A stretch of DNA of 64,000 bases from Patescibacteria group bacterium (GTDB lineage: Bacteria; Patescibacteriota; Minisyncoccia; Minisyncoccales; Staskawiczbacteraceae), in assembly GCA_038063015.1 (NCBI GenBank), contig JBBTVX010000001.1, positions 2,772 to 66,771 on the forward strand, given 5' to 3'. The number at the start of each line of letters is the position of its first letter. The stretch's first letter is position 1. Both the position numbers and the translations under genes were made by a program. Below are positions 3,518 through 63,208 of this stretch, one piece after another. The notes beneath the pieces were generated by a model. The model worked only from the letters and a program-made list of their open reading frames with translations, did no database searches and had not been told where the DNA came from.

Positions 3518-4241
3518 TTTTTCTCTGATATTTTAAAATTAAGTCAAAGGCTAAACTGTTAAAATATTTTTTAAGAATTTCGGCGTTAGGAATAATGCAA
3601 TGTCCGCCTATAAAATCTTTTGGCGAATAAAGAACCGGCCTGACCACATTCTTCATCCCAAGTTTTACATAACCCTCATTATAAGTTTTGTTAAAGTCGG
3701 ACGCCGCCTCATCAAAATCAACCCCCAACTTATCGCATATTTTCTTCATTTCTCCGTGCCAAGCAATAACAACTCCATAATAAGTAGTATCAAAAAGCTT
3801 GCCTAATTCCGTAGTTATAGAAGGATAAAAAACTTTCGTCTTAATGCCTATGGAATTAAGGTGTTTTTTAGCTAATTGGCCTGCCTTTTTATCATCAGCG
3901 CCGATATATTTTATAAATATTTTAATTCCCTTATGTAAATTAGGATGCACACCCCTAACCGGACTATGAACTACGGTTCCTCCAAATTTTTCTGAAAGTT
4001 TTTTTATTGTTCCGGGCGCCACCGTAGAGTGGATTATAACTAATCTGGGCCTAATGATTCTAATTTCCCTCTCTACTGTATTTATAAATTTTTCCGACCA
4101 CGGAATACAAATATTCAAAATTTCAACCCCGGACAAGCCATCGTCTCTTTTTAAATCTTTTATTTTTGGGTTTTGATAAAATTTAGCTATTGCCTGGCCC
4201 ACTTCGCCATAACCCAGTATGCCTATTTTTTTATTATTCAT
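3507..4241 (-). CDS. UDP-glucose/GDP-mannose dehydrogenase-family protein, short form lacking the C-terminal nucleotide-sugar domain
   Basis: Rossmann start MNNKKIGILGYGEVGQ, STVAPGT, a central-domain-like ELGKLFDTTYYGVVIAWHGEMKKICDKLGVDFDE, and a GGHCIIPN catalytic-Cys-like motif. Start set at ATG 4241, which overlaps the upstream stop by 8 nt. The track ORF extends further upstream without support. Confidence 0.5.
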   Translation of the reverse strand: MNNKKIGILGYGEVGQAIAKFYQNPKIKDLKRDDGLSGVEILNICIPWSEKFINTVEREIRIIRPRLVIIHSTVAPGTIKKLSEKFGGTVVHSPVRGVHPNLHKGIKIFIKYIGADDKKAGQLAKKHLNSIGIKTKVFYPSITTELGKLFDTTYYGVVIAWHGEMKKICDKLGVDFDEAASDFNKTYNEGYVKLGMKNVVRPVLYSPKDFIGGHCIIPNAEILKKYFNSLAFDLILKYQRKNEN

Positions 4242-52650: not shown

Positions 52651-55242
52651 ATGGAAAACAATAATTTTATTTCGCAAAAAAAATCTCATCGCTTATTTTT
52701 CTGGGGAATTTGTTTTATCTTATTTTTACCAATAATTATTCTGCCGCCGGCCTTTGAACCCTCTGTTTGGAGCCGGGCAATTTTATTTAGAACTGCTCTA
52801 ACCCTCTTAATTTCTTTTTTATTTTTTAAATTTTTCTATAAAAAAGATATAACTATTTCTATCCCAAAGTGGAAAAATCCTGTTTACCCCGTTAGAAACT
52901 TCGTTTCTAACGGGGTTTATTTGCCCTTCTTGATACTTTTAGCTTTTTTAATTGCTTTAATTATAGCAACTCTATTCTCGCAAGATTTGATGTTTAGTAT
53001 TTTTGGCTCGCCGAAGAGGGCCGGCGGCATTTTAAATTTGTTATTTTTCTTTCTTTTTGCTGTTTTTTTAGCTCTTTTCATAGATAAAAATGACTGGAAA
53101 AAATTATTTCACATATTATTCGGCTTTGGAGTTTTAATCTCTTTATTAGCTGTTGTTCAATATTTTAATCTCTTAAAAAATGTTTTTATTTCTTTTGAGT
53201 CGGGAGGCACTCCGTCTTTTTTAGGCAATGCCACTTTTTTAGCAATCTATATGCTTTTTTTAACTTTTCTATCTTTCACTCTATTAACACAAGAAAAAGA
53301 TAAAAAGAAAAAATGGGCATATGGCGCGCTATTTTTGCTATTTGGTTGTACTATTTTAATAACAGGAGCCAGGGCCACTTATTTGGGATTACTGATTGGA
53401 TTTTTTTTCTTTATCTTTTTCTACCCTAAAAAATTTAAACTTCTCAAAATAGTCGCCTCTTCTTTTGTGTTATTTGTCATAATTGCCGCGGTTCTTTTCA
53501 ATATTTTTCCTCAAATCGCGGAAAAAAACAACTTATTTAAAATGACGGCCGGCAGATTATCCATAAAGGGGGTGATGACAGACCTGGCAGGAACCCGTTT
53601 CTCGGCCTGGAAAATCGCCTTTCAGGCAATAAAAGATAAACCGATTTGGGGCTGGGGGCCTGAAAATTTCTATATCGGCTTTGAAAAATACTATGATACC
53701 AATACTCCGGGCATTAAAGATACATGGTGGGATAGGCCGCACAATGCATTTTTAGACATTGCCGTAAGCTCCGGCATAATATCGCTAATTCTTTATTTTT
53801 TATTCTGGCTCGCTCTTTTCTGGCAGCTGCAAAAATTTAAAAGGCGGCAGGGCGATGACGAGCGCGCCTACTTGGCTCACGGGCTTCAAACGATGTTTAT
53901 AGCGTATCTTACGGCGCTTTTCTTCAATTTTGACGATTTTTCAACCTATCTTATATCTTTCTTTTTTATCGGATATGCTTTTCATTTAATATCAAATCAG
54001 GGCGAACAAAAAATTATTCAAACGCCGAAAACGAATTTTTTTAAAAAAAAGTTTGCTTATATCCCCCTTCTGCTGATTTTAATCTGTTTTATTTGGTTTT
54101 GGAATATAAAACCATTATATCTCAATGAAAAAATCAATTATGCTGAAATTTTAATTGCCGCCAAAAAATGCGATAAAGCGATAAATATGACAAAAAATAT
54201 CTGGCAAGGCGGCGGAATTCTAACATCTTACGCGGGATTAAAGTATACTGATTTTATTAAACAGTGCGCTACAGCTGAAAAAGAAGTTGAATATGTTTTA
54301 TCTGGAACTGAAGCCCTAAAATCAGCCTCCCTTGTCCAGCCCAATTACACCAGAACATGGCTTGTTTTAGCTGGGTTTATAAATGTTTTAGCGGCTAAAG
54401 AAGAAGATGTTGAAAAGCAAAAAAAATTATTATTGGAAGCAAGGGGCTATCTTGAGAAAGCTTTGGAATTAAGTCCGAAACGCCAGGAAATTTTTATAGA
54501 AATGGAAAAAAATTATATTATGGCCAAAGATTACCAAAAAATGAAAAAAACAGCCGAAGATTGCCTTGAAATAGATTCCGGTTATGGACAATGTTATTGG
54601 TATTTGGGCATTGCGGAAATATTTTTAGGAGACCAGGAAAACGGCAAAAAACATATTCAGAGGGCGCAAGAAGGAGGCGCTGTTACCCCGCCATATATTC
54701 AGCTTGGAGTCGCCTATATAAGCCAAAAAAACTATAAAGACGCGGCTGAAGCCTACCGCATGGCTACTGTTTACAATAATGATAAAAACGCCGGCTGGCA
54801 CGCTGTTTTGGCTTTTTTATACAAAAAAATCAAGGAATATGATAAAGCGGGAAAAGAAGCTATTAAAGTTTTTGAATTAGAACCGGAAAATAAAGAGGCA
54901 ATGGATTTTTTAAAACAACTGCTGGGTTTAAGCCCCAATGACCCAAGCCTTCATTCTTCTTTGGCTTATGTTTACAAACAAATGGGAGAAGACGAAAAAG
55001 CCAGACAAGAGTATTTAATAGTTAAATCGCTTTATTTGCAGGCCGCGGCAAAATATCCAAAAGAGGGCACCTATCGCTTTAATTTGGCGGGTGTCTACAA
55101 AGAATTGGGCGAATACGAAAAATCGTACTACGAAGCTGTGCTTGCCAAAAAAATAGACCCGGGACTTGAGCCTGCCGTATTAGGTCTTTTATACACTTTG
55201 CCAGAAAATTACATAGAAAGATACAGACAAATTGGAAAATAA
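52651..55242 (+). CDS. O-antigen ligase / Wzy_C-domain membrane protein fused to C-terminal TPR repeats
   Basis: 863 aa with about 12 TM segments. GARATYLGLLIGFFFF and RPHNAFLDIAVSSGI are Wzy_C-like. The C-terminal 350 aa carry TPR-like repeats (YWYLGIAEIFLGDQENG, LGVAYISQKNYKDAAEAY and others). Confidence 0.75.
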   Translation: MENNNFISQKKSHRLFFWGICFILFLPIIILPPAFEPSVWSRAILFRTALTLLISFLFFKFFYKKDITISIPKWKNPVYPVRNFVSNGVYLPFLILLAFLIALIIATLFSQDLMFSIFGSPKRAGGILNLLFFFLFAVFLALFIDKNDWKKLFHILFGFGVLISLLAVVQYFNLLKNVFISFESGGTPSFLGNATFLAIYMLFLTFLSFTLLTQEKDKKKKWAYGALFLLFGCTILITGARATYLGLLIGFFFFIFFYPKKFKLLKIVASSFVLFVIIAAVLFNIFPQIAEKNNLFKMTAGRLSIKGVMTDLAGTRFSAWKIAFQAIKDKPIWGWGPENFYIGFEKYYDTNTPGIKDTWWDRPHNAFLDIAVSSGIISLILYFLFWLALFWQLQKFKRRQGDDERAYLAHGLQTMFIAYLTALFFNFDDFSTYLISFFFIGYAFHLISNQGEQKIIQTPKTNFFKKKFAYIPLLLILICFIWFWNIKPLYLNEKINYAEILIAAKKCDKAINMTKNIWQGGGILTSYAGLKYTDFIKQCATAEKEVEYVLSGTEALKSASLVQPNYTRTWLVLAGFINVLAAKEEDVEKQKKLLLEARGYLEKALELSPKRQEIFIEMEKNYIMAKDYQKMKKTAEDCLEIDSGYGQCYWYLGIAEIFLGDQENGKKHIQRAQEGGAVTPPYIQLGVAYISQKNYKDAAEAYRMATVYNNDKNAGWHAVLAFLYKKIKEYDKAGKEAIKVFELEPENKEAMDFLKQLLGLSPNDPSLHSSLAYVYKQMGEDEKARQEYLIVKSLYLQAAAKYPKEGTYRFNLAGVYKELGEYEKSYYEAVLAKKIDPGLEPAVLGLLYTLPENYIERYRQIGK
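52886..52916. repeat. Perfect 14-bp-arm palindrome embedded in-frame in the Wzy_C gene
   Basis: accccgttagaaac-ttc-gtttctaacggggt. It encodes YPVRNFVSNGVY and is locally GC-rich relative to the rest of the gene. Confidence 0.9.
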
Positions 55243-60354: not shown

Positions 60355-60670
60355 ATCCCTCACTAACTTTGCTCTCTTTACCCATTAGTTGGGTTTCAAA
60401 ATACTATTTTTTATTCTTTCTTTTATTCTATACCAAGCTGCTCCATGATTTTTCAACTTCTGCTCCCTATCTGCTGCATCTGTTTTTGATTTATATATCT
60501 CACAATATATCAGTTCCCAAGGAATTTTGCGTTTAGTTGAAAAAACTTTACCTCGATTATGCGCGTCTAATCTGTTTTGCATATTCAGAGTAATGCCGAT
60601 ATAAAATGTGAAATCTTTTTTGCTCTGAATTACATATAAAACATGCATAAGAGCAAAGTTAGTGAGGGAT
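60355..60670 (-). mobile_element. GIY-YIG gene cassette bracketed by a perfect 21-bp inverted repeat (candidate selfish/mobile unit)
   Basis: atccctcactaactttgctct (60355-60375) is the exact reverse complement of agagcaaagttagtgagggat (60650-60670). The arms lie 9 nt past the stop and 1 nt before the start of the enclosed ORF. Confidence 0.45.
60385..60648 (-). CDS. GIY-YIG nuclease-domain protein (UPF0213-like, 87 aa)
   Basis: LYVIQSKKDFTFYIGITLNMQNRLDAHN (GIY...YIG motif), and REQKLKN with the conserved Arg/Glu/Asn region. Confidence 0.8.
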   Translation of the reverse strand: MHVLYVIQSKKDFTFYIGITLNMQNRLDAHNRGKVFSTKRKIPWELIYCEIYKSKTDAADREQKLKNHGAAWYRIKERIKNSILKPN

Positions 60671-62806: not shown

Positions 62807-62852
62807 CTGGCCTTTAATATACCAGAAAAAAATCAAAAGTCAAAAAAACGAT

Positions 62853-63125
62853 GGGGCACGGGGTTCAAACTAGAATCAATTTAGCGGAGTGAATTCAGGC
62901 AAGCTTCAAGGCGCGAGGAAGAGATACGATGCTTTACGCATCGTTCTCGACGAGTAACGAAGAAGATTGCCTGAATTCGCCCGCCCGAAGGGAAGCCAAA
63001 AAAATGGCTAATTTCTGCGTTGCGACTTCGTCAACGTATCACATAGGATATGTTTCCTCGTCGCTCCTTGAAATTATCTCACTTTTTGGCTTCTAAATTT
63101 GATCCTAGTTTGAATCCCGTGCCCT
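62853..63125. other. Highly structured, GC-enriched element of about 270 nt (candidate novel ncRNA, or a MITE-like element)
   Basis: A closing helix of about 29 bp joins 62853-62882 to 63095-63125. Hairpin A spans 62884-62984, with perfect 12-bp gaattcaggcaa/ttgcctgaattc and an apical 7-bp acgatgc/gcatcgt. A short cccgaaggg hairpin reads C(UUCG)G on the minus strand. Hairpin B spans 62992-63093, with perfect 11-bp gaagccaaaaa/tttttggcttc and inner taatttc/gaaatta and gcgac/gtcgc. Confidence 0.6.
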
Positions 63126-63208
63126 GAAAACCGTTTATTTATTATATCATAAAAAAAAGATATACCATGTGAATAACTCTATGGCTTAAACTGAGGCAAA
63201 GAGCCCGC

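Follow-up and report, generated by a model that had tools for sequence, protein, structure and literature searches.

What is the GC-enriched, multiply hairpinned block that stands in the spacer between an LTD-domain gene and a DeoR-like gene in this genome of Candidatus Staskawiczbacteria (Patescibacteria/CPR), and is it a working part of the locus or a guest in it? The question is addressed here on a 64-kb stretch of DNA (64,000 nucleotides, hereafter the window), for which the first-pass annotation had proposed an unclassified structured RNA or a MITE. By the proteins encoded around the element, the window is assigned to a Candidatus Staskawiczbacteria-like CPR bacterium of Hainich groundwater. 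The gene order on the minus strand is LTD-domain gene, 402-nt spacer and DeoR-like HTH gene (start 62806), followed by an ECF-type sigma factor, a DUF5667 protein and a GIY-YIG gene.

The element comprises 271 nt (62854..63124, without strand assignment) and is built from a closing helix, module A, a mini-hairpin and module B. An inverted-repeat search finds the arms of the closing helix, read on the plus strand, at 62854..62882 and 63096..63124 (inverted repeat I1; 29 nt each, 90% complementary), in agreement with the end pairing of about 29 bp described from the first inspection. The two hairpins of about 100 nt reported inside it, with perfect 12-bp and 11-bp basal stems, are likewise recovered as inverted repeats I4 and I2. 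Hairpin A is based on a 17-nt inverted repeat (62891-62907 / 62962-62978, I4) that includes the perfect 12-bp stem GAATTCAGGCAA / TTGCCTGAATTC, and hairpin B carries the 11-bp stem GAAGCCAAAAA / TTTTTGGCTTC within I2. At the dyad centre, between the two, lies the mini-hairpin CCCGAAGGG (62984..62992, no strand assigned), whose minus-strand reading CCCUUCGGG is the tetraloop noticed earlier; the GUAAA apical loop of hairpin A on the same strand is also seen.

Folding of a 291-nt stretch containing the element gives a minimum free energy of about -129 kcal/mol for the minus strand and about -133 kcal/mol for the plus strand, vs about -75 +/- 5 kcal/mol for shuffled versions. None of the 200 shuffles folds as well as the real sequence, and the z-scores (-10.9 and -10.7, i.e. 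about -10.8 on both strands) show that the strong fold holds whichever strand is read. In the folds of the element itself (about -127 kcal/mol minus, -132 plus), 4 G-U pairs occur on the minus strand vs 7 on the plus strand; folding of both strands does not show the surplus of G-U pairs, on the strand that is transcribed, expected of a structured ncRNA. The GC content is 46.5%, compared with 34.8% for the whole window and 31% for the flanking spacer, and is foreign to the host. The enrichment reported by the first-pass annotation is thus real, but its use as a signature of functional RNA is a weak argument when taken alone, because the same enrichment is seen with foreign or mobile DNA.

Comparison with known RNA classes supports the initial statement that none can be matched. 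Rfam 15 at the gathering threshold gives 0 matches across the whole window, and a permissive scan reaches at best E = 1.8-6.3, far under gathering; Rfam also returns nothing for the three related copies described below (L098, L075 and L047). ARAGORN places no tRNA or tmRNA at the element. A likeness of the ends to a T-arm (GGTTCAAA/GAATCC) was considered and rejected, as no T-stem partner is present. Among the papers retrieved on mobile or palindromic elements and ncRNAs of CPR/Patescibacteria, none describes this element family. The word "unclassified" therefore stands, and the family is uncatalogued.

The spacer that harbours the element is a leader whose parts are common to related genomes. 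They follow one another as a TTATNCACA box, a spacer of about 20 nt, an extended -10-like TGTGrTAyAAT, a small A/U-rich hairpin AACGrTTTT...TCGTT with a T-run, the pair TTGACT-16/17-TAwATT, a Shine-Dalgarno sequence and ATG. Two promoter-like sites on the minus strand, given by a promoter scan, are kept in relatives: P1 (TTCACA-16-TATGAT, 63146..63173), which overlaps the conserved TGnTATAAT (63141-63152) and ends about 20 nt ahead of the element, and P2 (TTGACT-16-TATATT with TG, 62816..62843), located between the element and the start of the DeoR-like gene. Comparison with empty sites identifies the two halves of the host leader hairpin, the 5' half at 63125..63137 (AAACGGTTTTCAG on the minus strand) and the 3' half with its U-run at 62839..62853 (CATCGTTTTTTTGAC on the minus strand), with the element in the loop between them. 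On the minus strand the closing helix and the host stem run up to a U7 run. A terminator consensus scan, which admits loops of 3-8 nt only, makes no call at the element.

The DnaA-box-like TTATNCACA (63168-63176, minus strand) and TGTGrTAyAAT (63141-63152, minus strand) are each partly an inverted copy of the other. The pair is kept ahead of the DeoR-like gene across Staskawiczbacteria (L008, L009, L012, L020-L023, L027, L028, L094, L097 and many of L029-L086), and could be an operator or a promoter. An origin of replication, hinted at by the box, was rejected because just two boxes occur in 64 kb.

The same leader without the element is available from several relatives, and this comparison shows that the element at the DeoR-like locus is an insertion and not a conserved part of the locus. 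The spacer measures 402 nt in the window and in L007 but 103 nt in L008, the closest relative without the element (DeoR-like protein 89% identical), in which both flanks align and meet in a clean junction, TTTTCAG|CAATCG. Seven different orthologous leaders are free of the element (L008, L012, L020, L021, L022, L023 and L028), as are those of L094 and L097. The filled site of the window, AACGGTTTTCAG[271 nt]CATCGTTTTTTT, corresponds to the empty sites AACGGTTTTCAG|CAATCGTTTTTTTT in L008 and AACGATTTTCAG|AGTCGTTTTTTTT in L094, and the insertion point is exactly the loop of the small leader hairpin. No target-site duplication is visible, the filled TTTTCAG[...]CATCG being set against TTTTCAG|AGTCG (L094) and TTTTCAG|CAATCG (L008), which confirms what had been read from the ends of the element in the window. 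Since close relatives and the other homologous loci scanned lack the element, it is not a conserved cis-regulatory RNA or riboswitch of the DeoR-like gene.

L007 and L001/window represent two Hainich strains that differ at 27 positions in 2.8 kb, with no others. Apart from two neighbouring bases where the spacer begins, the differences are confined to three tight clusters, of which the LTD gene contains two and the DeoR-like gene one, a pattern that points to recombination patches rather than clock-like divergence. Selection on the element cannot be read from this pair and was rejected as a conclusion, because with clustered patches the 0 changes in the element are uninformative.

At the same insertion point, L009 and L027 hold just a 32-33-nt hairpin that corresponds to the outer ends of the element (13 nt + 19-20 nt), namely GGACACGGAATTC-TAGTTC-GAATCCCGTGCCC in L009 and GGGTGCGTGATTC-TATTTT-GAATCGCGCGCCC in L027. 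The parts kept are 19 nt of the left arm (62854-62872) and 13 nt of the right arm (63112-63124). Comparison of the sequences shows that the 239 nt absent from the short forms are exactly bracketed in the window by a direct repeat of the 5-nt GAATC (plus strand, 62873..62877 and 63112..63116). Two histories would fit: slippage could have deleted the interior of a long form to give the short forms, or a short form could have received the long one as a later insertion. Relative to the window, the short hairpin of L027 has a single compensatory exchange (A-U to G-C) together with two U-G wobbles, which shows that this hairpin is maintained. In L027 it is the sense strand that the wobbles favour, but in L009 and the window it is the antisense strand; consequently, they give no consistent RNA-strand signature. 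The calculated folding energy of the leader is -4 to -6.6 kcal/mol when empty, -21 to -36 kcal/mol with the short form and -129 kcal/mol with the full element.

Other, unrelated palindromes occupy the same leader elsewhere (L020 204-356, L037 ~1310-1480 and L059 ~1310-1480). That of L020, CCCTGAGTTTATCGAAGGG, lies at the very insertion site of the element, and in L059 a palindrome of about 70 nt separates the -35-like and -10-like hexamers of P2. Judged from these sequences, the leader appears to be a hot spot for hairpin insertions. A second palindromic family of the same genomes has the conserved ends CCCCGTTAGAAA...TTTCTAACGGGG. Within the Wzy_C/TPR gene of the window (52885-52917) it forms a perfect hairpin of 33 nt capped by a TTCG loop; in L027 (1437-1501), L043, L057, L066 and L075 it is a 65-135-nt in-frame insert in the DeoR-like gene, past about codon 6, by which the protein gains about 22 or more residues, and in L037, L043 and L066 it takes a promoter-region position. 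It also occurs in L044. By analogy, this family seems to behave like Rickettsia palindromic elements (RPE).

The element is not confined to this locus. A spurious 55-aa ORF within it, used as protein query, led to P0121 and from there to L098, a 1.4-kb JGI contig carrying another full-length copy, which has a SIMPL-domain gene on one side and a small GIY-YIG gene on the other, the start of the latter about 30 nt from the element. The flanks of L098 are unalignable with those of the window, while hairpin A is about 95% identical and the mini-hairpin identical. In hairpin B the base is conserved and the 45-nt apex is replaced, and the closing helix has diverged and is compensated in part only. 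The 55-aa ORF itself was rejected as coding, the L098 version having 46 aa and a different C-terminus. An nhmmer query built from the window and L098 copies retrieved two partial, diverged copies. One, in L047 (Hainich H51-bin038 MAG, JBBTQB01), begins 2 nt past the stop codon of a sigma factor and is followed 62 nt on by the contig end; the other, in L075 (JBDRST010000090.1), lies downstream of a kinase gene, is covered up to the edge of the locus sequence at position 3705 and has the mini-hairpin CCCAAAGG. All four copies are intergenic, and each has the orientation of its upstream gene (4/4). The copies recovered are two full and two partial ones, the four contexts being spread across different metagenomes and MAGs; the 74 kb formed by the 64-kb window and the 10 kb beyond its end contain one copy.

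Further searches delimit this distribution. Searched exhaustively with HMMER, the spurious ORF of 55 aa retrieves P0121 alone again, and a six-frame concatenated protein query for mis-called ORFs over further copies gives nothing. The end 20-mer is absent, exactly or near-exactly, from 185,579 GTDB species genomes and from IMG/VR; in JGI metagenomes it yields an L009-type remnant and four eukaryote-like repeat copies. The latter (L016-L019, from Ga0116226, Ga0116229, Ga0209611 and Ga0116227; JGI) end in GGGCACGGGGTTCAAACTAG, equal to the end 20-mer, and were judged chance matches, having no similarity beyond it. Core k-mers and degenerate motifs in IMG/VR give 0 matches, or 8 that all fail the covariance model, and in collections of phages and plasmids the element has only chance blastn matches of 24-33 nt. 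Contigs broken inside the element (L004, L005 and L047) were given no weight as a sign of repeats, since they are short and of low coverage.

Comparison of the interior reveals a repeated unit. Module A (62884..62984, plus strand) is an irregular hairpin of about 100 nt, and module B (62992..63093, minus strand) resembles it in the opposite orientation; a covariance model, R1, scores A at 101.5 bits on the plus strand and 23 on the minus strand, and B at 92.7 bits on the minus strand and 28 on the plus strand. Hairpins A and B are inverted paralogues of a single module of about 100 nt. R1 was built from five module sequences, two of which are paralogues inside one element, and across the modules it gives 93-101 bits forward and 18-38 bits in reverse. 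A scan of 346 kb of Staskawiczbacteria loci and 88 kb of viral candidates finds no further module. Each module consists of a 12-19-bp basal stem, a UUC/GAA helix, two purine-rich internal-loop strands that are conserved (yTTCAAkGnnCGAsGAnGA and GAnGrAGnnAAsGmAGAAr) and a variable apical hairpin.

Compensatory changes have preserved the fold of the module. In the basal stem both sides have changed in 13/28 pairs among the five sequences, two of them from within one element. Of the cells, 89% are paired, vs 32-50% when the partners are slid, and the observed score is reached by 0/500 shuffles. The L075 stem TGAAATAAGGTCAGTTTC shares 72% identity with the module-A stem of the window, TGAATTCAGGCAAGCTTC, with five differences compensated on the opposite arm, which indicates that the two stems are homologous and not unrelated host hairpins. 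G-U pairs account for 3 to 4 of the approximately 115 paired cells in the module helices. Selection on a fold of either strand, acting through single-stranded DNA or DNA-level repair, fits this near-absence at least as well as selection on RNA, and selection at the level of single-stranded DNA would produce the same covariation as selection at the level of RNA. The termini of the element are its least conserved part, the interior being more conserved.

With respect to mobile DNA, the terms of the original alternative can now be weighed. Two features of a classical MITE are found, namely 29-nt terminal inverted repeats and presence or absence at orthologous sites; a target-site duplication and an autonomous IS with matching ends are lacking. 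The MITE half of the proposal is therefore supported by insertion relative to orthologous leaders and by copies elsewhere, and weakened by the missing duplication, the missing parent IS and the poorly conserved termini. The structured-RNA half gains from the compensatory base pairs of the covarying module, a feature of structured ncRNAs in general, and from the shared orientation of 4/4 copies, but loses a conserved cis-regulatory role, given the relatives without the element. The statement that neither reverse transcriptase nor transposase adjoins the element needs one correction: an rve-family integrase/IS lies on the same contig about 8.4 kb past the window end (L001 287-1588 / 297-1642, 433-aa rve-domain transposase). 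This IS has perfect 14-bp inverted repeats, AAGGACCCTGAAAT, and was rejected as parent because they are unrelated to the element ends. The basal stem of the L075 module (GAGCCCTGAAAT) also begins with the 9-mer CCCTGAAAT, tied to the rve IS repeats, by chance or through a link. In the gene lists of the loci, no Y1/HUH transposase, RAYT, TnpB or integrase occurs near any copy.

Known palindromic systems offer partial parallels. BOX of Streptococcus pneumoniae and ERIC/IRU of enterobacteria are transcribed with neighbouring genes into stable hairpins. Like them, the element is intergenic and non-coding, falls within 100-300 nt, has no transposase of its own and is modular, with mutually pairing end modules around variable internal modules; unlike them, it has two inverted paralogous internal modules with conserved purine-rich internal loops, an apparently low copy number, a CPR host and no sequence similarity. 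With classical MITEs such as Correia/NEMIS of Neisseria it shares 29-bp terminal inverted repeats, small size, lack of coding capacity, presence/absence polymorphism at orthologous sites and insertion near promoters and terminators. It departs from these in lacking a target-site duplication and a same-end parent IS and in having covarying internal hairpins, and its conservation is lowest at the termini, which reverses the situation in typical MITEs. REP/BIME sequences (mobilised by RAYT), IS200/IS605-derived PATEs and integron attC sites are recognised as folded single strands. The element resembles these in the absence of a target-site duplication, the compensatory upkeep of hairpins, the orientation bias (relative to genes or replication) and the hairpin-associated insertion site, whereas its modules are inverted rather than direct and far longer than REP or attC hairpins. 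The closing inverted repeat around several hairpins and a total length of 150-300 nt recall retron msr-msd ncRNA; however, no reverse transcriptase adjoins any copy, the downstream genes being the DeoR-like HTH and GIY-YIG genes. Finally, the element is intergenic in 4/4 contexts, unlike Rickettsia palindromic elements, and its sequence is unrelated to the RPE-like family of the same genomes, with which it nevertheless shares the occurrence of long forms and ends-only short forms.

Collectively, these data lead us to favour, with a probability of about one half, the reading that the element is a copy of a non-autonomous, dyad-symmetric palindromic insertion family (MITE/BOX/REP/ERIC-like) whose single-stranded fold is under selection. 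The mobile character is suggested by presence and absence at orthologous sites, unrelated contexts, foreign GC, dyad symmetry and ends-only derivatives, and the same genomes bear other palindromic insertions at or near the DeoR-like locus. From this distribution the element is probably mobile. The departures from a MITE, i.e., no duplication, no parent IS, weak termini and covarying hairpins, are expected if the single-stranded fold matters. Against this reading stand the single copy in 74 kb and the combination of conserved loops, covarying stems and 4/4 co-orientation, which is the pattern of a functional RNA.

That pattern is the core of the strongest competing explanation, in which the element would be a stand-alone sRNA gene, transcribed from P1 as an RNA of about 300 nt ending at U7, with purine-rich loops binding a protein or nucleic acid in trans. 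Horizontal spread of such a gene would explain its patchy distribution. Conserved loops, covarying stems and a variable apex are in keeping with this proposal, as are the GC enrichment, the common orientation with the upstream gene in 4/4 copies, the promoter-like site about 20 nt upstream and the U-run 5 nt downstream on the minus strand. However, P1 and the U-run also occur in element-free relatives and hence belong to the host leader, and the element is dispensable in close relatives. Furthermore, both strands fold equally well, G-U pairs are nearly missing (3 to 4 / ~115 paired cells), the transition mismatches of the closing helix in the window, L009 and L027 have no consistent strand bias, and the inverted modules leave just one forward-sense module per transcript. 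Taken together, an sRNA gene is possible, yet somewhat unlikely.

Mobility and RNA function may also be combined. The family might constitute a new class of horizontally mobile structured CPR RNA, in which the module of about 100 nt with its invariant purine-rich loops (yUUCAAkGnnCGAsGAnGA ... GAnGrAGnnAAsGmAGAAr) would act as a platform for a putative protein or nucleic-acid partner, perhaps a nuclease or recombinase that also moves it, and the inverted arrangement of the modules would make either strand functional. This idea is speculative, and we regard it as unlikely.

A further possibility is that the element represents the ends of a larger mobile unit, an IS or a GIY-YIG homing-endonuclease cassette, from which the cargo was deleted, that is, a classical deletion-derived MITE whose parent is unsampled. 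The dyad arrangement of an end and a subterminal hairpin module on either side of a tiny central hairpin would agree with such an origin, and so would the end-only derivatives in L009 and L027; no copy, however, contains a gene between the modules. The small GIY-YIG gene about 30 nt from the L098 copy points in the same direction, but small GIY-YIG genes are common in CPR genomes and a single adjacency is weak evidence. The window itself contains an 87-aa GIY-YIG gene (60385-60648, minus strand) flanked by a perfect 20-bp inverted repeat (60356-60375 / 60650-60669; TCCCTCACTAACTTTGCTCT / AGAGCAAAGTTAGTGAGGGA), and the whole cassette is absent at the same spot in L012 and L094; the flanking repeat and this absence make it look like a mobile homing-endonuclease-type unit. 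Its existence lends the proposal some plausibility, although the inverted repeat of the cassette is unrelated to the element ends. We regard an origin from a larger unit as improbable.

A locally grown palindrome, without mobility or function and produced by replication template-switching at the existing leader hairpin, would suit the hairpin-loop position, the inner closing helix (AAACTAG...) that is an inverted copy of the short-form loop, and a leader prone to varied palindromes (L020, L037, L059), but it is highly improbable, being largely refuted by homologous copies in unrelated contexts (L098, L047, L075) and opposed by a GC-rich interior unlike the local DNA and by compensatory evolution between copies.

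For the preferred reading, a mobile palindromic family selected for its fold, a working scheme can be outlined. A putative protein acting in trans may move the element by recognising the folded single strand, and such recognition would explain why no target-site duplication is seen, why a hairpin loop was the landing site and why hairpins are under selection. By analogy with REP/RAYT, IS200/IS605 ends and attC, the fold could matter for a mobilising protein that reads single-stranded DNA, or it could matter for an RNA function. At the DeoR-like locus, transcription from P1, or read-through from the LTD gene, would produce a very stable RNA with a four-way junction directly followed by U7. The insertion would thereby raise the terminator between P1 and P2 from weak (-4 to -7 kcal/mol) to strong (-129 kcal/mol), and the regulator gene would be insulated while keeping its own promoter P2.

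In the tiny genomes of CPR/Patescibacteria, few mobile elements have been recognised and few non-coding RNAs are known. If the interpretation is true, a hairpin family that keeps its fold, lands in loops and leaves no duplication would represent a route of mobilisation undescribed in CPR, via the folded single strand. In groundwater populations, the family would make it possible to trace recombination and strain variation. Such elements would reshape regulator genes at their promoters and terminators, and metagenome assemblies may break at them. If the purine-rich loops bind a dedicated protein, the element and its partner would constitute a new RNA-protein or ssDNA-protein system.
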